This document shows, one piece after another, positions 1 through 12,289 of a stretch of DNA of 12,289 bases. The stretch comes from Promethearchaeota archaeon (lineage in GTDB: Archaea; Asgardarchaeota; Lokiarchaeia; Sigyniarchaeales; SOKP01). The stretch lies in assembly GCA_011364975.1 (NCBI GenBank), contig RDOE01000091.1:1-12289 (forward strand). Reading direction: 5' to 3'. The notes beneath the pieces were generated by a model. The model searched no databases, had not been told where the DNA came from, and was given only the letters and a program-made list of their open reading frames with translations. A program made the translations under genes and the position numbers. Numbering within the stretch: the first letter of the stretch is position 1; every line of letters begins with the position of its first letter.

Positions 1-365
1 ATAAGAAAATCATTAGAATTGATTACTCCGATACCTTCAGAGAGGATTACTCTCTCATTTTCTTTAAAGATATAATGTACTAAATCCATCGGATGAATAA
101 TCTTTATAATGTTATCCTTGAATAACACCTTAAATTTAGTGATAAACGAAGTATCCTCCTTATCTAAAGATTTAGATGTTGGAATTTCAATAATTTTAAC
201 GATTCTTCCAATTCCTAATGATTGATTTAATCGAAATAATACTAAATTATCTAAATTAAAGTTATGTCCTTGACAATAGAGATTAAAACATTTTGAGAAT
301 CTATATTCTACCGAATTACCACAAAAAGGACATTTATATTTAGATTCGTTAATGGTAATAATCAC
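1..365 (-). CDS. Partial CDS (3' end outside window): N-terminal Zn ribbon followed by Tudor-like segments, probably a RapA/HepA-like SNF2 helicase
   Basis: Not in the ORF track; translated by hand. GTG at 365-363 opens a frame with no stop to the window edge (in-frame TGA upstream at 392-390): MIITINESKYKCPFCGNSVEYRFSKCFNLYCQGHNFNLDNLVLFRLNQSLGIGRIVKII...KFKVLFKDNIIKIIHPMDLVHYIFKENERVILSEGIGVINSNDFL. It has a CxxC-x10-Cx4C Zn ribbon. 'LGIGRIV..VLF..IFKENERV' resembles the RapA N-terminal Tudor region (ELGLGTVV..LLF..MFNPGDTI). Helicase motifs are not visible in the window. Confidence 0.6.
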   Translation of the reverse strand, partial: MIITINESKYKCPFCGNSVEYRFSKCFNLYCQGHNFNLDNLVLFRLNQSLGIGRIVKIIEIPTSKSLDKEDTSFITKFKVLFKDNIIKIIHPMDLVHYIFKENERVILSEGIGVINSNDFL

Positions 366-447
366 ACAGTTTTTATTCTCTCTACTTATTCAATATATTA
401 TGCTCTGAAGTAAAAATTTTTTTATTTTTAGATATAGGGATTTATTT

Positions 448-1311
448 ATGACTGAAGAAAAAGTAGAACCTACCTATGTAGGTGAAAATGATAATTTAGT
501 TTTTATTGTACCTAAAGAATTATTTACAATGAAATTAAGCTCTGAAGAAAAACTTGATCGGAAAATTGCTAATGAATTTAGTAAATACTTGACTGGAACC
601 TTTAAAGGTTTCCAAAAAGCCAATAAAACAAAATATAATAATAAGGATAATTCTAACACTGTGGTTCCTACGGAGGGTTGGGATAAATTTAGAAAATTAG
701 CTGCCGATAAAGGAATTGATCTTATTGGTTTCACTCCCGTCCTCAAAAATTTTATTTTTAAAAACCTACCGGTAGTCGGTAAAAATGCGATTGTGCTTGG
801 TATGCAGATGGATTGGAATAAAATAAAAACTGCACCCAGTATTTTATGCGGAATTGAGGCATTTAGAGTATATTATGAATTAGGAGAGTTAACAATAGAA
901 TTAACAGAATATTTGCAGAACTTAGGTTATAAAGCCGAAGCCCATCATCCTTTTGGAGGTAAATTATTGTTTACAGCACATGCAGTTGCTGCTGGGTTAG
1001 GATATATGGGAAGAAATGGATTAGTGATTACTCCAGAATTTGGACCTCGACAAAGATGGAGTATGATTACCACCGATGCAGAAATTCCAAGGGAACAAAG
1101 AAGAGATTTTACAGATCTAATCGATTTCTGTCAAACTTGTGGTTTATGTATTGAAAATTGCCTTGGTAAAGCCACTTTAGATGAACCTATTGAAAAAATT
1201 GAGGGCTCAGGGATAATTACTCATATTGATCGCCGAAAATGTATTGAAAGTCTTCTAATGAATAATTATTGTTCAAATTGTTTGAAAGTGTGTCCTCAGG
1301 GAAGAAAATGA
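448..1311 (+). CDS. Reductive dehalogenase (RdhA)/epoxyqueuosine reductase (QueG)-family cobalamin and 2x[4Fe-4S] protein, short cytoplasmic form
   Basis: Motifs GIDLIGFT, NAIVLGMQMD, YLQNLGYKA, AVAAGLGYMGRNGLVITPEFGPRQR..ITTD, then FCQTCGLCIENCL and KC-x8-CSNCLKVCP. This is the characteristic RdhA/QueG core. No twin-arginine signal and no adjacent rdhB-like membrane anchor gene. Confidence 0.75.
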   Translation: MTEEKVEPTYVGENDNLVFIVPKELFTMKLSSEEKLDRKIANEFSKYLTGTFKGFQKANKTKYNNKDNSNTVVPTEGWDKFRKLAADKGIDLIGFTPVLKNFIFKNLPVVGKNAIVLGMQMDWNKIKTAPSILCGIEAFRVYYELGELTIELTEYLQNLGYKAEAHHPFGGKLLFTAHAVAAGLGYMGRNGLVITPEFGPRQRWSMITTDAEIPREQRRDFTDLIDFCQTCGLCIENCLGKATLDEPIEKIEGSGIITHIDRRKCIESLLMNNYCSNCLKVCPQGRK

Positions 1312-2930: not shown

Positions 2931-5663
2931 TCAATTTTCTTTAATTGAATATTTTTTTTGTAAATATTCATCGATAGATTTAGCTGCTTTTTTGCCAGCA
3001 CCCATAGCGGAAATAACAGTAGCACTACCCGTTACGATATCCCCTCCTGCAAAAATCTCCTCAATATTAGTCTGACCTTCCTCATTAGTCTCAATATAAC
3101 CCCACTTATTCAACTTCAAGTCTGGAATTGATTTTGTTAAAACTGGGTTTGCTTTAGTACCTACAGCAACTATTACGGTATCAGTATCTATTAGATATTC
3201 TGAATTTTCAATAGTAATTGGACTTCTACGGCCTGATTGGTCAGGTTCTCCTAGTTTCATTTTAACTACCTCCATTTGTTTGACATTTCCAGATTCATCG
3301 CCAACGAATCTTACTGGATTAGTTAAAAATTGAAATTGAACACCCTCTTCTATAGCATGATGATATTCTTCTCTTCTAGCGGGCATCTCCTCCTCGGATC
3401 TCCTATAGACTACAATCACTCGTTCTGCACCTAATCTTAGAGCGGTTCTAGCAGAGTCTAGAGCTACATTGCCTCCTCCTATTACAGTTATGATCTTTCC
3501 TATTTTAATTGGAGTATCATACTCAGGAAACCTATAAGCTTTCATTAAATTAGATCGTGTTAGAAATTCATTAGCTGATAGAACACCATTCAAGTTCAAT
3601 CCTGAAATGTTCAAGAACATGGGTAGACCTGCTCCAACTCCTATAAAGAAAGCTTTAAATCCCATCTCTTTCAAATCTTCGAATGATAACGTTTTTCCGA
3701 TAATGGCATTATAGTTAACTTTTACATCTAACATTTTAAGAGTTTCAATCTCATCTTTAACAATTTCTTTCGGTAACCTGAATTCAGGAATTCCATAAGT
3801 TAATACACCACCTCCTGCATGAAAAGCCTCAAATATAGTAACATCATACCCTCTCATAGCTAATTCTCCTGCACATGCTAATCCAGCAGGTCCGGAGCCA
3901 ATAACTGCTACCTTTATATTCGTAGGAGGAGCACACTCTGGGCACTCTTTTAATTTATTTCTTCTCTCCCAATCAGCAATATACCTCTCTAAATATCCAA
4001 TTGCTATAGGTTCTCCAAGCGAACCTAATAAGCATGAATTTTCACATTGTGTTTCTTGGGGACATACACGTCCGCAAATTGCAGGTAATAAATTACTTGA
4101 TTTTATTTTATAAAGAGCAGCAACATGTTTCTCTTCTCTAAGAAGTTTTATAAATTCAGGAATTCGGATATTCACCGGACAACCAGTCACACATAAAGGT
4201 AAACCACATTGTAAACATCTTTGCACCTCTAATTTCATCATTTCATCGGTTAATCCATAAGGAACTTCTTCAAAATTAGTGATTCTTTCGTTGGGAGGTT
4301 GTTCTACCATCTTTACTCTTCTTTGATCAACATAATTCTTTAATTTAGATAAGGCAATTCTGCTTAACTCCTCAAAGCTTTTACTTTCTTCTTGAATATC
4401 CTTTTTTGTGATTAAATTCATATCTAAGGCTTTTTGAAAAAACTCGGCACCTCTTTTAGTTCGAATAATAACAGTTGACCATCCTGGTTCTGAACCTATA
4501 GATCCTACTGAAATATCTGCATATTCTGCAGTTAAGTCATCACAAAAGAAGCATCCAAATCGGCCGTATTTCTTGATTCTTTTGATAGGAATATTAGAGA
4601 TGTTGCTTTCTTGGTCGTAAATGATGAATTTACCTTTATCTATATTCATTTTTTTAATATCAGATGGATAAACTTGGAATTCATTTTTTAATAATTCTAC
4701 AATTTTATCATAATCAAAAGATTCCATACAAAATAAGCCAATTTTTAGAACAATATTATCATAAAATGGTTTATTAAACGGAAAAAAGGAGATCTTTCTA
4801 AGAGCTTTCATAATACATGGAGTCCCTACTACTGCAATTTTGTCATGATCTCTAGCATCGTGAAATATTTTAAGTACTGGAACATTTGTATACTTGGTTC
4901 CGGCAGTTTTTAAGAGGTCCTCCTCATTTTCTATTAAAATAGGCAAAGGTTTTAACGGTTTATCTCCTATGGTAACCGCGAAAGATCCGTTAATGTAACC
5001 TTGCTTAAAAGCGGTCTTGAGAAGAGTTGTTACGATTCCTCCATCTTGTGCTACTGACTTTATCCTAGGTTCGGTTGTTTGAGCCGTAAAAAGATCACGG
5101 TAACAATTGAATTGTTTCGTAAACTTGATATTAGGATCGTGATTTTCCTCTAATTTTTCTAATTCCTTGGAAAAAAATGATCGTGGACAAGCTGAGAAGC
5201 ATAATCCACAATTTACGCACAAGTCTTCGTTGATTTCAAAGGAACCCTCTGAATAATCAATCGCATTAACGGGGCAAATTGCAACACATAAACCGCACCC
5301 ACAACAAAGGTTTTTTTCTTTAATTAGCTTTGTACTCGGAAATATCCCTTTCTTTTCAGAGTTTTCAATAATTTCTTTGAAAAACCTTGGGTGTTTATCT
5401 ACAAATGCTAATAAGCCTAATTCTTTTAAATATTCGATATTATTAAGAATATTCTCTTCGGGTAATTCTAACTCATTCTGAATTTTTTTAATATCAATTT
5501 GACCATCATTTTTGATTTTTTCTAAAATCCTGAATCTTTCATTTTCTGCTTCCGTTAATGAATTAATTAATTTTTCGAATTCATTTTGATTATATTTGCC
5601 AATCTCTAAGATTTTAGTTTTATGTTCCATTAACAGTTCAATTAAAGGAGATTTAACTTGCAT
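2931..5663 (-). CDS. Fusion protein: wHTH-like domain + 2[4Fe-4S] ferredoxin + FrhB/FpoF-type (F420-binding) flavoprotein + NfnB/NfnL (SudA/GltD-like) NADPH-binding bifurcating subunit
   Basis: Ferredoxin (~5330-5180): CCGCGLCVAICP and CVNCGLCFSACP. FrhB (~5100-4340): AQDGGIVT, TAGTKYT, VGTPC, IGLFCMESF, GCFFC, ADISVGSIG..GWSTVIIRT. NfnL (~4320-2931): ERITNFEEV..RCLQC..CVTGCP, GRVCPQETQCENSC, IGYLERY, GSGPAG, YGIPEFRLP, GGGNVALD..YRR, FAGGDIVTGSATVISAMGAG. Confidence 0.9.
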   Translation of the reverse strand: MQVKSPLIELLMEHKTKILEIGKYNQNEFEKLINSLTEAENERFRILEKIKNDGQIDIKKIQNELELPEENILNNIEYLKELGLLAFVDKHPRFFKEIIENSEKKGIFPSTKLIKEKNLCCGCGLCVAICPVNAIDYSEGSFEINEDLCVNCGLCFSACPRSFFSKELEKLEENHDPNIKFTKQFNCYRDLFTAQTTEPRIKSVAQDGGIVTTLLKTAFKQGYINGSFAVTIGDKPLKPLPILIENEEDLLKTAGTKYTNVPVLKIFHDARDHDKIAVVGTPCIMKALRKISFFPFNKPFYDNIVLKIGLFCMESFDYDKIVELLKNEFQVYPSDIKKMNIDKGKFIIYDQESNISNIPIKRIKKYGRFGCFFCDDLTAEYADISVGSIGSEPGWSTVIIRTKRGAEFFQKALDMNLITKKDIQEESKSFEELSRIALSKLKNYVDQRRVKMVEQPPNERITNFEEVPYGLTDEMMKLEVQRCLQCGLPLCVTGCPVNIRIPEFIKLLREEKHVAALYKIKSSNLLPAICGRVCPQETQCENSCLLGSLGEPIAIGYLERYIADWERRNKLKECPECAPPTNIKVAVIGSGPAGLACAGELAMRGYDVTIFEAFHAGGGVLTYGIPEFRLPKEIVKDEIETLKMLDVKVNYNAIIGKTLSFEDLKEMGFKAFFIGVGAGLPMFLNISGLNLNGVLSANEFLTRSNLMKAYRFPEYDTPIKIGKIITVIGGGNVALDSARTALRLGAERVIVVYRRSEEEMPARREEYHHAIEEGVQFQFLTNPVRFVGDESGNVKQMEVVKMKLGEPDQSGRRSPITIENSEYLIDTDTVIVAVGTKANPVLTKSIPDLKLNKWGYIETNEEGQTNIEEIFAGGDIVTGSATVISAMGAGKKAAKSIDEYLQKKYSIKEN

Positions 5664-5664
5664 T

Positions 5665-6549
5665 TTAAGAGACCTCCTCTTGAAATTTATTCATTGCTTT
5701 ACATTCGTGATCATATTGCTTAAGCGATTGCTTTTCTTGTTCAATAAATCTTATTGAGCGGGTTAATAAATTATCGAAATCAACCATATGAGCGTCCACA
5801 TCTGGTCCATCTACACAGGCATAATATATATCTCCATCAATTGTGGAAAAACGACATCCTCCACACATACCTGTTCCATCAATCATTATAGTATTTAGCG
5901 AGGCATAAGTTTTTACCTTAGGTAAATCTCCAGAACCGTCAGTTGTGAGAGCTACATATTTCATCATTATTAATGGCCCAATTGCAATTACAATGCTTAT
6001 TTTCTGCTTGATTATTAACTCCTTTAATGGAGCTGTTACCACTCCTTTAATACCTTCAGTTCCATCGTCAGTACAAATTATCAATTCGTCACTTACACTT
6101 CTCATTTTCTCACGCCAAAATAACAAATCGGTATTTCTAGCTCCGATGATCGTGATGACTGTATTTCCTGCTTCTTTTAACTCTTTGGCTTGAGGATAAC
6201 AAGGAGCGAGCCCAACCCCACCCCCAATTATAATAACAGGATATTCATACTTTTGAATGTGTATTTTGTTTCCTAAAGGTCCCACAACATCAAGAATCTC
6301 ATCACCAACATTTTGATGTGAGAGTAATTTTGTGCTTTTACCAACAACTTGATAGACTATTGTTATGGTTCCTTTATCCCTATCATAATCAGCAATGGTT
6401 AATGGAAATCTTTCTCCAGTTTCATTTATACGTAGGAGTATAAAATTACCAGCATATGCTTTTTGAGCAATTAATGGTGTATCGAGAACCATCTCAAATA
6501 ATACACCACTTTTCCCTAATTCCCTCTTTTCTAAAATTTTATATGGCAT
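5665..6549 (-). CDS. nfnA: NADH-dependent reduced ferredoxin:NADP+ oxidoreductase small subunit (NfnA/NfnS, SudB/PyrK-like; FAD, [2Fe-2S])
   Basis: GERFPLTIAD, VVGKST, VVGPLG, IGGGVG, TDDGT.G.KG.VT, IGPLIMM, and SLNTIMIDGTGMCGGCR...CVDGP (Asp/Cys3 [2Fe-2S] motif). It lies directly upstream of an NfnL-containing gene. Confidence 0.9.
   Translation of the reverse strand: MPYKILEKRELGKSGVLFEMVLDTPLIAQKAYAGNFILLRINETGERFPLTIADYDRDKGTITIVYQVVGKSTKLLSHQNVGDEILDVVGPLGNKIHIQKYEYPVIIIGGGVGLAPCYPQAKELKEAGNTVITIIGARNTDLLFWREKMRSVSDELIICTDDGTEGIKGVVTAPLKELIIKQKISIVIAIGPLIMMKYVALTTDGSGDLPKVKTYASLNTIMIDGTGMCGGCRFSTIDGDIYYACVDGPDVDAHMVDFDNLLTRSIRFIEQEKQSLKQYDHECKAMNKFQEEVS
5672..5677 (-). promoter_or_regulatory. 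Shine-Dalgarno site (GGAGGT) of the FrhB-NfnL fusion gene, embedded in the nfnA 3' end
   Basis: Minus strand reads GAGGAGGTCTCTTAAAATG. GGAGGT lies 8 nt before the ATG at 5663, and the nfnA stop is 1 nt from this ATG, which suggests translational coupling. Confidence 0.7.
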
Positions 6550-6709: not shown

Positions 6710-9463
6710 TTAATTAAGGAAGAGTAGTTTCCCTAGAAAAGTAGTTAGATCCATTATTTTCAATTTGCTCTTTTGTTCCTTATTTTCGTTCAGGTAACAA
6801 TTAAGATGGGCTAAACATTTCGGACAACTTACGATTAAGTAATCAGCACCAGTATCGATAGCCTCTTTAATGCGATCTGCTTGTATCATTCTTGAATACT
6901 CATTACAACTTATATATGAGGACACTCCACAGCATAATGCATCAGCTTTATTACTCTTCATCTCAATCAATTCAATAAACGGGATTTTTTTAAGTAGTTC
7001 ACGTGGAGGGTCATAAACTTTGCTCATTCTTCCTAATCTGCAAGCATCATGATAAGTAACTTTAATCTTTTCCATAATGGGAAATTTTAAATCCTCTAAT
7101 ATATGTTCTTTTAATAGGTATTCAGTTATATGGTAAATTTCAAAATCGAATTCTTGGGAATCTTTAAACAATTTTGGATATTCAAATTTCCATGTGTAAT
7201 ATCCTTCGGCGCAACTAAAAATTAGTGTTTTTACTCCAGCATCTTTAAATAATTTAACATTATATCGTGCTAATTTCTCGAATGAAACCATATCTCCTTG
7301 CCATAAACTATCATGTCCGCAACATTTTTCATTTGAGAGAACCACAGGCGAGATTTCGTTATGATTTAACAAACCTATTACTGTTTTTGGAATTTCTAAG
7401 AAATCTTGGGCTTCATAACATTGGTAAGTAGATTGAAATCCATAGGAACATTCTTGTATATTAGATTCATCACACGCATTACTATAAGCTTCAAGTTTTT
7501 GATCAGTACTACAACAGATATTGCAATTTAAACATCTTCTTGCCTCTTGAATTGCCCTATCCTCAGTCATACCCAATTCAACTTCATCAAATCCTCTTAA
7601 TCTTTTTTCCAATGGTAATATATCTAAAGTTTCTTTTGGTAACTCTCTTGCGTCTTTTTTTGGAATGGGAGCTACTTTTGCATATTGTCTTAAGGTTCTA
7701 TTTTGCTTCAAATCAATACCTCTCAAGTATCTATCTATGGATTCTGCAGCATCATATCCGTGGGCAATTGCCCTAATTGCGATTCCTTCACCTTCAATAA
7801 CATCACCACCAGCAAATATATTTGGAATATTAGTTTGTAAAGTGATTTCATCAGTTTCTATCTTACCCCATCTATCGATTTTTAATTGATCATGAGCAGC
7901 TTCTAATAGTGTAAAATCAGTACCTTGCCCTATTGCGAGGATCATAACATCAATATTCATTTTGAATTCGGAACCTTCAATTGGGATGGGACGCCTACGT
8001 CCTGAAGGATCGGGCTCACCAAGTTCCATTCTTATACATTCTACCTCTTTTATATTTCCTTGTTCATCCCCTATTACTCTTATAGGATTAGTTAAGAATT
8101 GAAAATCGATATTTTCTTCTTTAGCCATCTCGATTTCTTCTTCTGAAGCTGGCATTTCTTGTTCAGAACGTCTATATATAACAATGACCTTCTTGGCACC
8201 TAATCTTAAAGCAGTTCTTGCCGAATCCATGGCCACATTTCCACCTCCAACAACACCGATAATCTTATCTTTAAATTCGAACTGCTTTTTAGTTAGGTTT
8301 TTTTGTTTGAGAAAGTTAAGACCGCATAATACGTTTTTCAGATCAGCACCCTCAATTTTCATTTCTAAACAAGTTTGTTGACCAATTGAGATAAAAAATG
8401 CTTTAAATCCTTGCTTCTCTAAATTTTCAAAACTTAAGCTTGGACCTACAGGTGTGTTAAGTTTAATTTTTACACCCATACTTTCGATAAATTCAATTTC
8501 ATGATCTAAAATATAAGCTGGTAAACGATATCTTGGAATTCCAGACCTTAAAGTACCTCCTTTATAAATCTCCGCCTCAAAAACAGAAGGTTTGTATCCT
8601 TTTCTTGCTAAATAATAAGCTGCTGATAACCCTCCCGGTCCTGCGCCTATTATTGCAACTTTTCCTTTCTTTTGCTCAACAGGTTTAATCGTTGATTCAA
8701 GATTATTATTCAATTCATAATCTGAAATAAATCGCTTTAATGCCCGAATTGCAATAGGATCATCAATATCTTTGCGATTACAAGCTAAAGCGCAAGGTTC
8801 AGTACATATACGAGCACAAATCATTGGGAAAGGGTTTTTTTCTCTAATTAGATCAAGAGCCTCTTGAAATTTACCTTCTGCTATTAATGAAATATAACCT
8901 TGGACATCTACTCCCGCAGGACAAGCATTTGTACAGGGAGGTATTGAATTCATAAAGGGTAAGCATCCCATAAAGTACGCAATTTCACCTTTATCTGATA
9001 TTTTTAAATTTGTTGATTCTAAAAACCCTAGCTTATTATGAGTATCAATTAAATCATTTGCCATTAGATAGGGTAGATTCGAATATTCTCGATCATGATG
9101 AGCTTTTACTTTTTCTATCTCTAAGGGTTCATAGTCTGAAATAAGAGTTCTGAGATTTAATATAATATCAAGAAAGTTTACACCTGTTTTTTCTGTAAAC
9201 ATCGGACAATATTCCATACATGTTCCACAAGTTAAGCAACTCCATATATTATTACGTTCTAATGCTTCTTCTGGTGATAAGAAAGTTAAATCCATAATTA
9301 ATTGTCTTGGAAAAAAGGTGCCTATATGGGAGAGGGGACATACGTTAACACATCGATTACAGCTATAACAATAATTTGCCGCCGCTTTAACTTTATCAAT
9401 TACTGCTTTAGGAAGTTTAGTCTGTTCTTTTTTAGCGCCGTCTATATCTTTCGATTCAGTCAT
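6710..9463 (-). CDS. HdrD-like protein (HdrC 2x[4Fe-4S] + two CCG domains) with an inserted, circularly permuted GltD-type FAD/NADPH module
   Basis: HdrC: CYSCNRCVNVCP and IWSCLTCGTCMEYCP. CCG1 starts at IAYFMGCLP (~8980-8958). The insert (~8945-7511) runs PPCTNACPAG..ICTEPCALAC..LKRF..GAGPGG..GIPRYRLP..GGGNVAMD..YRR..FAGGD..EARRCLNC. CCG1 resumes at EKCCGHD..SCAEG. CCG2 is VTYHDACRLGR..LCCG..SCPKC. Confidence 0.85.
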   Translation of the reverse strand: MTESKDIDGAKKEQTKLPKAVIDKVKAAANYCYSCNRCVNVCPLSHIGTFFPRQLIMDLTFLSPEEALERNNIWSCLTCGTCMEYCPMFTEKTGVNFLDIILNLRTLISDYEPLEIEKVKAHHDREYSNLPYLMANDLIDTHNKLGFLESTNLKISDKGEIAYFMGCLPFMNSIPPCTNACPAGVDVQGYISLIAEGKFQEALDLIREKNPFPMICARICTEPCALACNRKDIDDPIAIRALKRFISDYELNNNLESTIKPVEQKKGKVAIIGAGPGGLSAAYYLARKGYKPSVFEAEIYKGGTLRSGIPRYRLPAYILDHEIEFIESMGVKIKLNTPVGPSLSFENLEKQGFKAFFISIGQQTCLEMKIEGADLKNVLCGLNFLKQKNLTKKQFEFKDKIIGVVGGGNVAMDSARTALRLGAKKVIVIYRRSEQEMPASEEEIEMAKEENIDFQFLTNPIRVIGDEQGNIKEVECIRMELGEPDPSGRRRPIPIEGSEFKMNIDVMILAIGQGTDFTLLEAAHDQLKIDRWGKIETDEITLQTNIPNIFAGGDVIEGEGIAIRAIAHGYDAAESIDRYLRGIDLKQNRTLRQYAKVAPIPKKDARELPKETLDILPLEKRLRGFDEVELGMTEDRAIQEARRCLNCNICCSTDQKLEAYSNACDESNIQECSYGFQSTYQCYEAQDFLEIPKTVIGLLNHNEISPVVLSNEKCCGHDSLWQGDMVSFEKLARYNVKLFKDAGVKTLIFSCAEGYYTWKFEYPKLFKDSQEFDFEIYHITEYLLKEHILEDLKFPIMEKIKVTYHDACRLGRMSKVYDPPRELLKKIPFIELIEMKSNKADALCCGVSSYISCNEYSRMIQADRIKEAIDTGADYLIVSCPKCLAHLNCYLNENKEQKSKLKIMDLTTFLGKLLFLN

Positions 9464-9919: not shown

Positions 9920-9928
9920 GTGAAAAAC

Positions 9929-11854
9929 ATGAGTAAAGCGAAAGAAATAACCTTACCAGACGAGGTTAAAGGTTTTTCCCAAGTTAGACTTGATGTTGAT
10001 TTAACCACTGGAAAAATTCAAAAATCTACATTATCAAGAGAATTTTGCCGAGATTGGATTGGTGGCTATGGTTTCGGTGCAAAAGTTTTATGGGATGAAC
10101 TTAAACCAGGAGTAGATCCTTTAAGTCCAGATAATGTTTTTGTATATGCCCATGGTCCTTTTCCAACTACTATTTTGCCAACAAGTTCAAAATATGGAGT
10201 ATTTGCTAAATCACCCTTAACTAACATGTTTGGAATGGCCATTTCTTCAGGTTCGGTCGCAGCTCAAGCTCGGAGAGCAGGAGTAAACTTGATTGTCATC
10301 AAGGGTAAAGCGCCAGAACCTGTTTATATGGTTGTTGATGACGATGATCATTACCTAGTTCCTTGTGAAAAAACAGTTTGGGGCAAAGGTTGTTGGGAAA
10401 CAGAAGAAATGATTCGGGAAGAATTCCAAGATCATCGCTTAGCTGTTATGTCAATCGGTCCATCTGGAGAGCATATGAGCCACATGGCTTGCATAACCAA
10501 TGATCGCAACAGACAAGCTGGTAGAACAGGGATGGGTGCAGTTATGGGTTCTAAAAATCTAAAAGCTATTGCTTTTAGAGGTACTAAAGGGGTAAAAGTT
10601 GCGCAACCTGCAGAATTTTATAAATTAGCAAAAAAGCTAATTAAAGTTGCTAATGGCCCTGCTACTGCCAAATATAGAGATCTGGGAACCCCTGCAGGGA
10701 TTACCAGTTATAATAAACTCGGTATGATGCCTACCAATAATATGCTTGAAGGAAGTTGGGATAGAGTAGATGATGGCACTTTCACAGGAGACACACTCAA
10801 TGCAGATTGGGTGGTTAAGAAAGTTGCGTGCTCCCAATGCTCAATAGCATGTGATCATATTACTAAAGTGCCTAAAAATCATCCAAATTGGCCTAATCTC
10901 TATATTAGTATTGATCAAGAACTTTGTTATAGTTATGGTAGCGCTTGTGGGAATTATGATTGGCCAACAGTTTTCAAATGTGTGGAATTGAGTGATAATT
11001 TGGGAATTGATGCCATTTCTGGAGGAGTCACAGCCGCTATGGCCTGTAACTTATATGAGGATGGTCTTATTACAAAAGAGGATTTAGGATATGAGTTACC
11101 CTTCGGCTCTACGGTAAATCTAGCACGATTCACTGAAGAAATGTGTCTTGGTAAAGGATTTGCCGGTAAGATTTTTGGAGATGGTTGTCTTCAGGCAGGT
11201 AAAAGATTAGAAGAAATGGGGAGAAAAAATGCATCCTATTATGGAATGCATATAAAAGGGCTTGAAATGCCAGCATTTGATCTTCATGGAATGAGTACAT
11301 TTGCTGTTGGCATGAGTGTATCAGTCCGAGGGGCTTGTCACTTACGTAATGGAGCGTATGGTATCGATGCAAAAGGAACTTATGATAGATTAGCTTATGA
11401 TAAACCGGTAGAACGTGGAAAAGCTATAAAAAGTCTTGAAGATATTTACGGAATAATAGATTCTTATATTATTTGTAAATTTACTCGTGGAATTTATGAA
11501 TCAGATGATGAAATGGCAAAAGCATTCGAATTGGTTACAGGAATTCCACATACCGGAGACTCAATAAATCTTAGAGGCGATTCAATCGTTACTCTCTCTC
11601 GATGTTTTAATATTCGAGAAGGATGGACACGAGCCGATGATCATCCACCTGCAAGATTCTTTAAAGAAGCTCACACTAGAGGACCTAACAAAGGTGTGAC
11701 CTTAAAAGAAGATGGTTATCAGAAATTATTAAGTGGATACTTTGAAGCTAGAGGATATGATAAAGAGACAGGAATACCTACTGATGCTACGTTGAAGAAA
11801 TTAGGATTAGATTTTGTAATTGGGAAACTAAAGTCAACCGGAGGTAAGAAGTAG
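9929..11854 (+). CDS. aor: Tungsten-containing aldehyde:ferredoxin oxidoreductase (AOR/WOR family)
   Basis: WIGGYG, KSPLT, IGPSGE, AGRTGMGAVMGSKNLKAI, GTP, CSQCSIAC [4Fe-4S] motif, DNLGIDAIS, KGLEMPAFD, RGACHL, FNIREG..DD..P.RF. ATG at 9929 is preferred; the ORF track uses the in-frame GTG at 9920. Confidence 0.92.
   Translation: MSKAKEITLPDEVKGFSQVRLDVDLTTGKIQKSTLSREFCRDWIGGYGFGAKVLWDELKPGVDPLSPDNVFVYAHGPFPTTILPTSSKYGVFAKSPLTNMFGMAISSGSVAAQARRAGVNLIVIKGKAPEPVYMVVDDDDHYLVPCEKTVWGKGCWETEEMIREEFQDHRLAVMSIGPSGEHMSHMACITNDRNRQAGRTGMGAVMGSKNLKAIAFRGTKGVKVAQPAEFYKLAKKLIKVANGPATAKYRDLGTPAGITSYNKLGMMPTNNMLEGSWDRVDDGTFTGDTLNADWVVKKVACSQCSIACDHITKVPKNHPNWPNLYISIDQELCYSYGSACGNYDWPTVFKCVELSDNLGIDAISGGVTAAMACNLYEDGLITKEDLGYELPFGSTVNLARFTEEMCLGKGFAGKIFGDGCLQAGKRLEEMGRKNASYYGMHIKGLEMPAFDLHGMSTFAVGMSVSVRGACHLRNGAYGIDAKGTYDRLAYDKPVERGKAIKSLEDIYGIIDSYIICKFTRGIYESDDEMAKAFELVTGIPHTGDSINLRGDSIVTLSRCFNIREGWTRADDHPPARFFKEAHTRGPNKGVTLKEDGYQKLLSGYFEARGYDKETGIPTDATLKKLGLDFVIGKLKSTGGKK
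11840..11845 (+). promoter_or_regulatory. Shine-Dalgarno site (GGAGGT) for the downstream Fe-S subunit gene
   Basis: CCGGAGGTAAGAAGTAGAATG: GGAGGT lies 10 nt before the ATG at 11856, and the aor stop TAG (11852-11854) is 1 nt from that ATG. Confidence 0.65.
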
Positions 11855-11855
11855 A

Positions 11856-12289
11856 ATGTCTAAAGCCATAACAACGAAAAAAAGAGGTGGCGTAGTACAC
11901 CAATTCATTGTTGTCGATCCAGATCTCTGCACTGGGTGTGAAACATGTGAAACGATATGCTCCTTTGTACATGATGGCGAATTCAATCCAATAAATACTA
12001 GAATTCATAGAGTAAGAATAGAACCTGTATTTAACATAGCTCTAGCATGCCAGAAATGTGAAGATGCACCTTGTATTCGCAGTTGTCCCGAAAAAGCCTT
12101 GGAGAAAGATGAACGAGATGGTTCTATCCTTGTAGATGACGATAAGTGTAATGGATGCGGTTATTGTGTACGTGCTTGCGATTTTGGGGTTATGACTATG
12201 CATATTACTACACAAAAAGCACTTGTATGCGATCTCTGTGAGAATATGAAAGAGGAATTTATTGATCCAGAAGTAGGGAAGAAGGAGCC
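11856..12289 (+). CDS. Partial 4x[4Fe-4S] electron-transfer subunit (DmsB/CooF/AorA-like), AOR partner
   Basis: Not in the ORF track; translated by hand: MSKAITTKKRGGVVHQFIVVDPDLCTGCETCETICSFVH...ALACQKCEDAPCIRSCPEKA...DKCNGCGYCVRACDFG...LVCDLC...KKEP, open to the window end. The Cys spacing is typical of four-cluster subunits. Confidence 0.9.
   Translation, partial: MSKAITTKKRGGVVHQFIVVDPDLCTGCETCETICSFVHDGEFNPINTRIHRVRIEPVFNIALACQKCEDAPCIRSCPEKALEKDERDGSILVDDDKCNGCGYCVRACDFGVMTMHITTQKALVCDLCENMKEEFIDPEVGKKE

Follow-up and report, generated by a model that had tools for sequence, protein, structure and literature searches.

Heterodisulfide reductases of the HdrD and HdrBC types, including the soluble HdrCB fusions, consist of an HdrC-like domain with two [4Fe-4S] clusters followed by two CCG domains, and their CCG motif has the five-cysteine form CX31-39CCX35-36CXXC. 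A related iron-sulfur part is found in EtfD of Mycobacterium smegmatis (9ojn), which has a membrane cytochrome b domain and takes its electrons from electron transfer flavoprotein (ETF). The insertion of a GltD/NfnB module has been published for the HdrA subunit, in the texts on HdrL (PMC2702500), on the HdrA9-11 proteins of ANME-1 archaea (PMC9012536) and on type III HdrA (PMC12054007). Here we describe the anatomy, conservation, distribution, homologies and gene contexts of P0001, a protein encoded on a stretch of 12,289 nucleotides (the window) from a Promethearchaeota archaeon (contig RDOE01000091.1). P0001 is an HdrD-like protein, that is, a fusion of HdrC and HdrB, in which a FAD/NAD(P)H-binding cassette sits in the loop after the first cysteine of the first CCG domain (CCG1), and this arrangement is genuine and conserved. 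A reading of the window made from the sequence alone (the sequence-only reading) took such insertions as known in HdrA and knew of none in HdrD, and the three sources bear it out for HdrA. A search of the full-text literature found neither an HdrD-like protein with such an insert nor a tandem fusion of the same parts, although supplements outside the search may show related layouts; the HdrD-hosted NAD(P)H cassette is thus apparently undescribed so far.

P0001 resembles HdrD, HdrBC and the soluble HdrCB fusions in the order of its domains and in the five-cysteine motif of the second CCG domain (CCG2). It differs from them in that CCG1 is split by 515 residues and lacks the fifth cysteine, HdrE is missing, and an HdrA-like gene is found at a distance of up to 5 kb in only 9 of 60 inserted loci (from 58 genomes), which we picked together with 20 uninserted loci from the genomes of its GTDB family; CoM-S-S-CoB cannot be assumed as the substrate in an Asgard archaeon. 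With HdrL, type III HdrA and the ANME-1 HdrA9-11 it has in common an NAD(P)H/FAD/Fe-S cassette of about 500 residues inserted in an Hdr subunit. In those proteins, however, the host is HdrA (ferredoxin domain) with its own bifurcating FAD kept, whereas in P0001 the cassette is carried by the catalytic HdrD-like subunit and lies within its CCG active-site motif. EtfD is alike in its HdrD-like Fe-S/CCG domain (23-24% identity) but has no NAD(P)H cassette. The gene and its parts are as follows.

6710..9463, minus strand: whole gene of P0001, a single uninterrupted open reading frame (ORF) of 917 amino acids, HdrD-like with an inserted NfnL/GltD-type module (105 full-length relatives aligned)
9200..9379, minus strand: HdrC-like ferredoxin domain with two [4Fe-4S] clusters, residues 29-88 (Pfam Fer4_8; NCBIfam HdrC TIGR03290 at residues 30-108)
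8951..9199, minus strand: linker, first beta-strand and first cysteine of CCG1 ('IAYFMGC'), from BLASTP to P0139 and an own-genome paralogue
7406..8950, minus strand: insert, residues 172-686 (515 residues), a permuted NfnL/GltD-type FAD/NAD(P)H/2x[4Fe-4S] module with a short tail
8705..8941, minus strand: N-terminal Fe-S segment of the insert, residues 175-253 (Fer4_20 profile 30-111; C177, C181, C216, C220, C224, C228, K243)
7757..8662, minus strand: FAD- and NAD(P)H-binding Rossmann domains, residues 268-569 (Pfam Pyr_redox_2; 'GAGPGG', 'GGGNVAMD...IYRRSEQEMPA')
7448..7597, minus strand: C-terminal segment of the insert, residues 623-672, with the displaced first Fe-S motif 'RRCLNCNICC' (C644, C647, C650; Fer4_20 profile 3-57)
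7208..7405, minus strand: remainder of CCG1, residues 687-752 (C714, C715, C751; Gly754 in place of the fifth cysteine)
6803..7060, minus strand: CCG2 with the full five-cysteine motif, residues 802-887 (C808, C844, C845, C880, C883)

Two stretches of P0001 match the CCG profile (PF02754) above its cut-off, and CCG1 is complete only when the strand before the insert (residues 161-167) is counted with it. When the C-terminal 258 residues were scanned alone, CCG1 was recovered at residues 682-752 with profile positions 7-78 of 85 only, and CCG2 was complete; the first six profile positions, including the first cysteine, are absent downstream of the insert and are supplied upstream of it. The spacing of CCG2 (C808-X35-C844 C845-X34-C880-xx-C883) matches the five-cysteine motif, and CCG1 departs from it, with 546 residues from C167 to C714 and a glycine, Gly754, as its last position. 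In NCBIfam, residues 167-658 were assigned to PRK12771 ('NAD(P)-binding protein', a subfamily of GltD relatives) and residues 688-912 to CCG proteins of the TfrB/LdhH/GlpC type. The Pfam and NCBIfam scans found no HdrA-type domain in P0001, its host halves matching HdrC, CCG families and the uninserted HdrD-like protein, and neither a membrane domain nor a cytochrome b domain was among the Pfam matches.

Comparison with uninserted relatives places the boundaries of the insert. The segment EIAYFMGCLPFM (C167, codon 8963-8965) aligns with the first strand and the first cysteine of uninserted HdrD-like proteins, and the clearest comparison is offered by P0139, an uninserted relative of 414 residues from a library of 50%-identity representatives. 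BLASTP aligned residues 1-171 of P0001 with 1-170 of P0139 (81 of 174 positions identical) and residues 687-916 with 180-413 (138 of 238); both proteins contain the unusual 'SCAEGYYTWKF' and the C-terminal 'GKLLFL', and P0139 has nine residues at the site of the 515-residue insert. The genome of the window itself contains uninserted paralogues, one of which, on contig C145, matches residues 16-172 and 683-910 of P0001 on adjoining DNA, while in the second residues 73-172 pair with 13-105 and residues 683-910 with 106-342; the two join residues 172 and 683 with zero residues or one codon between them. The uninserted form has 39 residues between C166 and C206, the counterparts of C167 and C714, and the insert is 506-521 residues long across the 106 family members. 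The sequence-only reading had proposed that CCG1 of an HdrD-like protein contains a whole FAD/NADPH/Fe-S module of the GltD type, with more than 500 residues between the first cysteine (~8965) and the CC pair (~7322), and excision at ~8945-7420. The Pfam matches, the flank alignments, the residue count and the insert at 7406-8950 all agree with this. Two details need amending: the CCG1 motif is interrupted by the insert as proposed but also lacks its fifth cysteine, and the module is a complete FAD/NAD(P)H/Fe-S unit but of the permuted NfnABC/HdrL type, not plain GltD.

By its profile matches, the insert is a GltD/NfnL module in circularly permuted form, with its Fe-S motif split between the two ends. 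The N-terminal end of the insert begins at position 30 of the Fer4_20 profile ('PPCTNACP'), and the C-terminal end (residues 623-672, 'EARRCLNCNICC') matches profile positions 3-57 (E 2.8e-5) at 24.3 bits, against a curated cut-off of 25.8. Fer4_20 is therefore not in canonical order in P0001, positions 30-111 being N-terminal and 3-57 C-terminal. The same permuted order is present in NfnA of NfnABC, in a stand-alone protein of 494 residues (P0178) and in many other hosts. Among solved structures, the cassette comes closest to the middle 'NfnL-like' domain that NfnA has in the Bfu-type NfnABC/Stn enzymes (9bov_A, 9n5u/9n5v, 8oh5_C); it is 44% identical to 9bov_A (E 4e-120), and the VIA comparison gave Z ~47 to domains of the NfnABC/Stn type. 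These NfnA proteins are alike in having a permuted cassette between Fe-S domains of the host (40-44% identity) and in the three-cysteine, one-lysine ligands of the proximal cluster. The domain there is a terminal entry point for NADPH and is carried by a NuoG/Fdh-like subunit; the bifurcating enzyme to which this belongs has three subunits and no CCG domains.

Numbering in 9bov_A equals that of P0001 minus 73, which makes C181, C220, C224 and K243 the equivalents of C108, C147, C151 and K170, described in the text of PMC11829005 as the ligands of cluster A7, the first after the FAD. According to the same text, the FAD of the middle domain of NfnA lies at the end of the chain, in a position incompatible with bifurcation, and NADPH electrons run along A7-A6-A3. 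C177, C228 and C644/C647 align with the remaining cysteines of the 9bov_A middle domain, and from this we infer that these four hold a second, A6-like cluster. A cluster ligated from both ends of the cassette would tie these ends together beside the insertion point, ten residues from C167, and a module clamped in this way would be suited to insertion in a loop.

The inserted architecture is widespread within one lineage. We aligned P0001 end to end with 105 database proteins of 900-927 residues (53-98% identity), which carry generic names in the databases ('FAD-dependent oxidoreductase' and 'heterodisulfide reductase-related iron-sulfur binding cluster'). When the architecture was sought in 400 genomes of the phylum, the full-length inserted gene was recovered from 83, which all belong to one GTDB family: 82 of the 134 other genomes of this family plus that of the window, and 0 of 265 genomes from other families (E <= 1e-180). 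A search of 1.84 billion 50%-identity representatives gave, within its best 150, a single protein that is colinear over the full length, P0039; the others match by the cassette only or by the host only. The inserted HdrD layout was found in none of eight further library proteins (five whose match starts before residue 170, and P0127, P0145 and P0201); their hosts include NuoF-type, thiamine pyrophosphate (TPP)-enzyme, dihydroorotate dehydrogenase (DHODH) and MvhD/CCG proteins, among others. At the nucleotide level, the upstream junction is bridged by contigs from four runs of four studies, and the downstream junction by X11 contigs (68 nt past ~7405) and marginally by X1 (30 nt past). An assembly chimera at either junction, a pseudogene or a chance juxtaposition has nothing in its favour and can practically be dismissed, since the intact ORF recurs in 83 genomes of a single GTDB family and in 105 full-length proteins with invariant ligands, and contigs bridge the junctions.

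We read the conservation of the ligands from the alignment of the 106 inserted family members. The eight cysteines of the HdrC-type domain (C32, C35, C38, C42, C76, C79, C82 and C86) are invariant, as are C167, the cassette residues C177, C181, C216, C220, C224, C228, K243, C644, C647 and C650, the CCG1 cysteines C714, C715 and C751, and the CCG2 cysteines C844, C845, C880 and C883; C808 is kept in 105 sequences. Gly754 replaces the fifth CCG1 cysteine in all 106. This cysteine is also lacking in the uninserted relatives (G247, invariant in 15), and more distant paralogues retain a CxxC at the end of CCG1.

The nucleotide-binding motif divides the family. The protein of the window has 'YRRS', and YRR[ST] is the motif of the NADPH-using NfnL and GltD; an acidic residue at this place points to NADH by the general rules of Rossmann folds. 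YRR[ST] is present in 36 of the 106 members, including that of the window, the acidic 'V[DE][IVLF]' in 69, and neither in one; among the 60 genome loci the split is 18 YRR[ST]-type to 42 acidic. The proposal that the protein oxidises NADPH is thus in keeping with the motif of the window's own protein, but it cannot be extended to the 69 relatives with the NADH-like motif.

Models of the fold give indirect support to a rejoining of the two CCG1 parts across the insert. The AlphaFold2 model of P0001, built on the family alignment, has a mean predicted local distance difference test (pLDDT) score of 87.5 and a predicted template modelling (pTM) score of 0.88, and its strand 161-164 is above 90. 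Against solved EtfD (9ojn_A), in which the HdrD-like domain is contiguous, it scores Z 22.7 with a root-mean-square deviation of 3.8 over 366 aligned residues (12..916), which is more than either host half could supply, so both halves superpose together. As a control, the model of the uninserted P0139 (pLDDT 72.5) matches 9ojn_A with Z 24.3, matches HdrC, and matches HdrB (8rvu_B) with Z 20.9 over residues 158..414. Because the HdrB match starts at residue 158 of P0139, the HdrB fold begins with the strand that P0001 retains upstream of its insert. In the Foldseek comparison of P0001 with the PDB, cassette matches dominate and HdrB is absent among the matches listed; in the wide VIA comparison of the P0001 model, entry 8rvu is represented by its HdrA chain (8rvu_a).

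The origin of the inserted form was addressed with two trees. An uninserted sister paralogue is present in the same GTDB family, with a full-length copy in an open frame of 400-437 residues in 70 of 135 genomes; both forms occur in 33 genomes, and the genome of the window has the inserted form only. The host tree was a quick IQ-TREE run on the last 235 residues, outside the insert, with 61 inserted rows, 13 uninserted rows and three outgroup paralogues. One change on this tree explains the insertion, with a Shimodaira-Hasegawa-like approximate likelihood ratio test (SH-aLRT) support of 63 for all 61 inserted rows and 91 for 60 of them, and the uninserted rows make up the opposite side (support 73). 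The simplest reading is therefore that the insertion arose once, which the tree supports moderately.

The modules most closely related to the cassette sit within HdrL-like HdrA and FrhB-like proteins. The cassette is 52% identical over 488 residues, with the same end motifs and the same boundaries, to the module of an HdrL-like ORF of 1648 residues in a congeneric genome (L117, 974-5917, minus strand), which lies 85 bp downstream of an uninserted paralogue and contains HdrA parts, the permuted cassette, a second HdrA-like part, a ferredoxin and an MvhD/FlpD domain. In a quick module tree of 87 rows, the HdrD inserts and four library proteins form a clade (SH-aLRT 99) that is sister to the HdrL modules of the family (94). 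Two of these four are of the HdrA type, and the other two, P0130 (821 residues) and P0152 (817 residues), have the cassette between FrhB_N (residues 75-148) and the end of FrhB_C (profile 79/89-148 at residues 663/671-734); the cassettes of P0130 and P0152 group with the NADH-type HdrD inserts. The presence of HdrA-, HdrD- and FrhB-like hosts in one module clade indicates that one cassette lineage was inserted in all three. We also found end-to-end fusions of cassette, HdrC-like domain and two CCG domains in metagenome-assembled genomes of Methanophagales, Syntropharchaeia and 'Ca. Methanoxibalbensis' (P0120, P0126, P0128). These are alike in having both building blocks in one chain, but the blocks are in tandem, CCG1 is uninterrupted, the similarity is confined to the cassette (41-45% identity) and the proteins are labelled 'FAD-dependent oxidoreductase'. 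The tandem fusions show that NAD(P)H cassettes and HdrD-like units have been combined on more than one occasion.

The loci of the two forms differ in their neighbours. Downstream of the uninserted paralogue and on the same strand, 14 of 20 loci have an HdrA-like or HdrL-like gene, which in six of the 14 encodes an HdrL-like giant of 1637-1657 residues (L111, L116-L120). Other uninserted loci have the order HdrD-like gene, HdrA of 1037 residues, MvhD and FrhB-like gene. The sequence-only reading held that the fused protein bypasses HdrA, and these 14 loci, set against the nine inserted loci with an HdrA-like gene, are in accord with it. In one locus, L037 (14068-15747, plus strand), an HdrA-like gene is split into ORFs of 110 and 448 residues by a single in-frame TGA at 14398-14400, which probably encodes selenocysteine; selenocysteine is reported for Asgard HdrA in the text of PMC11291895. 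In the window, the gene of P0001 is flanked by the following genes.

9920..11854, plus strand: tungsten-type aldehyde:ferredoxin oxidoreductase (AOR; WorL/AorB-like), the divergent neighbour (Pfam AFOR_N/AFOR_C)
11856..12287, plus strand: polyferredoxin (WorS/AorA-like) that runs off the end of the window (Pfam Fer4_11 and others)
5665..6549, minus strand: NfnS/NfnA-like (SudB/PyrK-like) FAD/[2Fe-2S] protein, the downstream neighbour (Pfam, NCBIfam)
2931-5663, minus strand: fusion of 910 residues with a ferredoxin domain, an FrhB-like part (FrhB_N/FrhB_C, residues 192-425) and a canonical NfnL/GltA (residues 456-904)
448-1311, plus strand: reductive-dehalogenase (RDH)/QueG-like Fe-S protein of 287 residues (TIGR02486, E 5e-25, below the cut-off)

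For the AOR ORF the listed start is the GTG at 9920, and the ATG at 9929 ('...GTGAAAAACATGAGTAAA') may be the true start. The best solved matches of the AOR are 8c0z_A (AorB) and 1aor_A (the AOR of P. furiosus), and those of a complete orthologue of the polyferredoxin are 9mqx_E, 6x6u_B (WOR5-S) and 8c0z_C (AorA). In 41 of the 60 loci an AOR gene is found no more than 5 kb from the inserted gene (downstream on the same strand in 27, with a median gap of 246 bp, and divergent in 14), and its polyferredoxin is found at this distance in 40. These neighbours raise a real, if less than probable, alternative, that P0001 reduces NAD(P)+ as the output subunit for the neighbouring tungsten AOR, an archaeal analogue of the 'N-type' tungsten oxidoreductase (WOR) AorABC. 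Electrons would then pass from the aldehyde through W-pterin, polyferredoxin, the HdrC-like domain, the CCG clusters and the cassette clusters to FAD and NAD(P)+, the CCG clusters acting as a mere wire without disulfide turnover. The gene linkage, which outlasts rearrangement between the divergent and the co-directional order, speaks for this account, as do the absence of an AOR from all 20 uninserted loci, the AorB/WorL and WorS/AorA matches of the two neighbours, and precedent: the text of PMC12318220 describes bacterial WORs with a third, FAD-containing and NAD(P)-reducing subunit, states that WorSL enzymes gain a BfuABC 'plug' or a single such subunit, and places the BF-type and N-type WORs of clade 87 only in Bacteria.

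The N-type AorABC of Aromatoleum aromaticum is alike in its gene trio of aldehyde oxidoreductase, polyferredoxin and FAD/NAD(P) protein. In P0001, however, the FAD protein is embedded in an HdrD-like protein, and the comparison with AorC is one of the gene trio. No AOR lies within 5 kb in 19 of the 60 inserted loci, whole sub-clades included; a plain wire would not obviously need the invariant five-cysteine CCG2 and four-cysteine CCG1; AOR-family genes are numerous in the genome; and synteny may be common to related genomes by descent. Genome G000 (3.7 Mb) has 12 AOR-family and 41 CCG-domain matches, both families being strongly expanded.

The downstream neighbour bears on another account, in which the cassette FAD bifurcates as in NfnSL, with the NfnS-like protein (5665-6549) docking on P0001 and NADPH electrons split between ferredoxin and a high-potential acceptor, either a disulfide or NAD+. 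An NfnS-like gene follows the inserted gene on the same strand in 17 of 60 loci (median gap 150 bp), as it does in the window, and the cassette shares 47% identity with the NfnL domain encoded after the NfnS-like gene and 42-43% with solved NfnL chains. We consider this quite unlikely, as NfnS is missing from the other 43 loci and has its own NfnL gene within 5 kb after it in at least 14 of the 17, and the FAD of the closest solved relative with a permuted cassette is terminal and non-bifurcating by the description in PMC11829005. A weak observation, made by eye, points the same way: the 160-bp gap before NfnS has a T-rich stretch after the stop codon and an A/T-rich box before the NfnS gene. 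The NfnS-like protein is probably the partner of the gene that follows it and not of P0001. In related loci this NfnL gene was seen both with and without the FrhB part.

Further neighbours are less constant. An RDH/QueG-like gene occurs near 29 of the 60 inserted loci, just upstream on the same strand in 23 of them, where the orthologue of the window's RDH/QueG-like gene lies at a gap of ~110 bp. The window also encodes, at 1378-2769 on the minus strand, a parallel beta-helix (NosD-like) surface protein of 463 residues with a Loki-CTERM sorting domain at residues 432-458, in keeping with an origin in Lokiarchaeia. A multi-pass hydrophobic protein of ~230 residues, unmatched in Pfam and NCBIfam, is encoded next to the gene and divergently from it in 9 of 60 inserted and 9 of 20 uninserted loci (examples are L039:10769-11455, plus strand, and L057:638-1336, minus strand), often in two or three tandem copies followed by a helix-hairpin-helix (HhH) protein. 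This neighbour (~233 residues), together with EtfD as the best structural match of the host, could be taken to suggest a membrane- or quinone-linked dehydrogenase like EtfD, GlpC or HdrDE, whose HdrD-like part would hand electrons from NAD(P)H to a membrane partner. Such a role is very improbable: the hydrophobic gene is divergently transcribed and is absent from the window and from 51 of 60 loci, Pfam recognised neither a membrane domain nor a cytochrome b domain in P0001, none of the eight window ORFs scanned matched cytochrome b in Pfam, and a common fold is no proof of a common function.

Taking these data together, we lean towards an account in which the cassette takes the place of HdrA at an HdrD-type site and acts as a built-in port for NAD(P)H, with a putative disulfide or persulfide substrate and a putative second port of the ferredoxin type. 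NAD(P)H (NADPH for the protein of the window) would pass a hydride to FAD, and single electrons would move from FAD to the Lys-ligated proximal cluster (C181, C220, C224, K243), then to the cluster presumably held by both cassette ends (C177, C228, C644, C647) at the insertion point, and from there to the CCG clusters, where a candidate disulfide or persulfide would be reduced. The cassette would thereby stand in for HdrA, which as a partner delivers electrons to the uninserted sister paralogue. The invariance of the eight HdrC-like cysteines and the linkage to AOR and polyferredoxin suggest a second electron port: the HdrC-like di-cluster domain would probably face a ferredoxin-type partner, most likely the polyferredoxin of the linked tungsten AOR, and a coupling of P0001 to the aldehyde oxidoreductase is plausible. 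The claim of the sequence-only reading that the protein is self-sufficient is for the same reasons doubtful. For the ligands of the second cluster, and likewise for all distances, the direction of the electrons, the substrate and the partner, we infer the scheme from homology and gene context.

Several points weigh against this account of a built-in port. The ligands of the A6-like cluster are assigned by alignment alone. With only four cysteines, a canonical five-cysteine non-cubane cluster at CCG1 is doubtful, and with it the path of the electrons is uncertain. The 69 acidic, NADH-like members make the name 'NADPH' invalid for the family as a whole. The neighbour counts come from loci picked from related genomes of one family and are not independent. 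The linkage to AOR fits equally well a reverse flow, towards NAD(P)+. Standard potentials of about -580 mV for aldehyde/acid, about -320 mV for NAD(P)H and higher values for disulfides allow both directions thermodynamically. Finally, no heterodisulfide has been identified in Asgard archaea as far as the text of PMC11291895 goes, which speaks of an 'unidentified heterodisulfide'.

A rather doubtful combination of these accounts would make P0001 a redox hub with three ports, in which the CCG clusters lie mid-wire between an NAD(P)(H) flavin port at one end and the AOR polyferredoxin at the other, and aldehyde, NAD(P)(H) and an Asgard-specific disulfide or persulfide are coupled in one complex, independently of HdrA. 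Confurcation or bifurcation would then possibly take place at the CCG site and not at the flavin, and the permuted cassette would act as a mobile 'NAD(P)H plug', which this lineage would have built into HdrA, into HdrD and into FrhB-like proteins.

Enzymes of the Hdr type are central to anaerobic energy conservation, and the thiol or disulfide that they use outside methanogens, including in the Asgard relatives of eukaryotes, is not known. A single chain in need of NAD(P)H only would be much easier to express and assay than a multi-subunit HdrABC, and P0001 may therefore offer a practical route to the substrate. The protein is also an example of a domain insertion directly inside a metal-cluster motif, for which a single cluster holding both ends of the cassette would provide a structural reason, and the same lineage has used this cassette in three hosts. 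The link to AOR suggests an archaeal counterpart of the NAD(P)-coupled WORs, which in clade 87 are described from Bacteria only in the text of PMC12318220.

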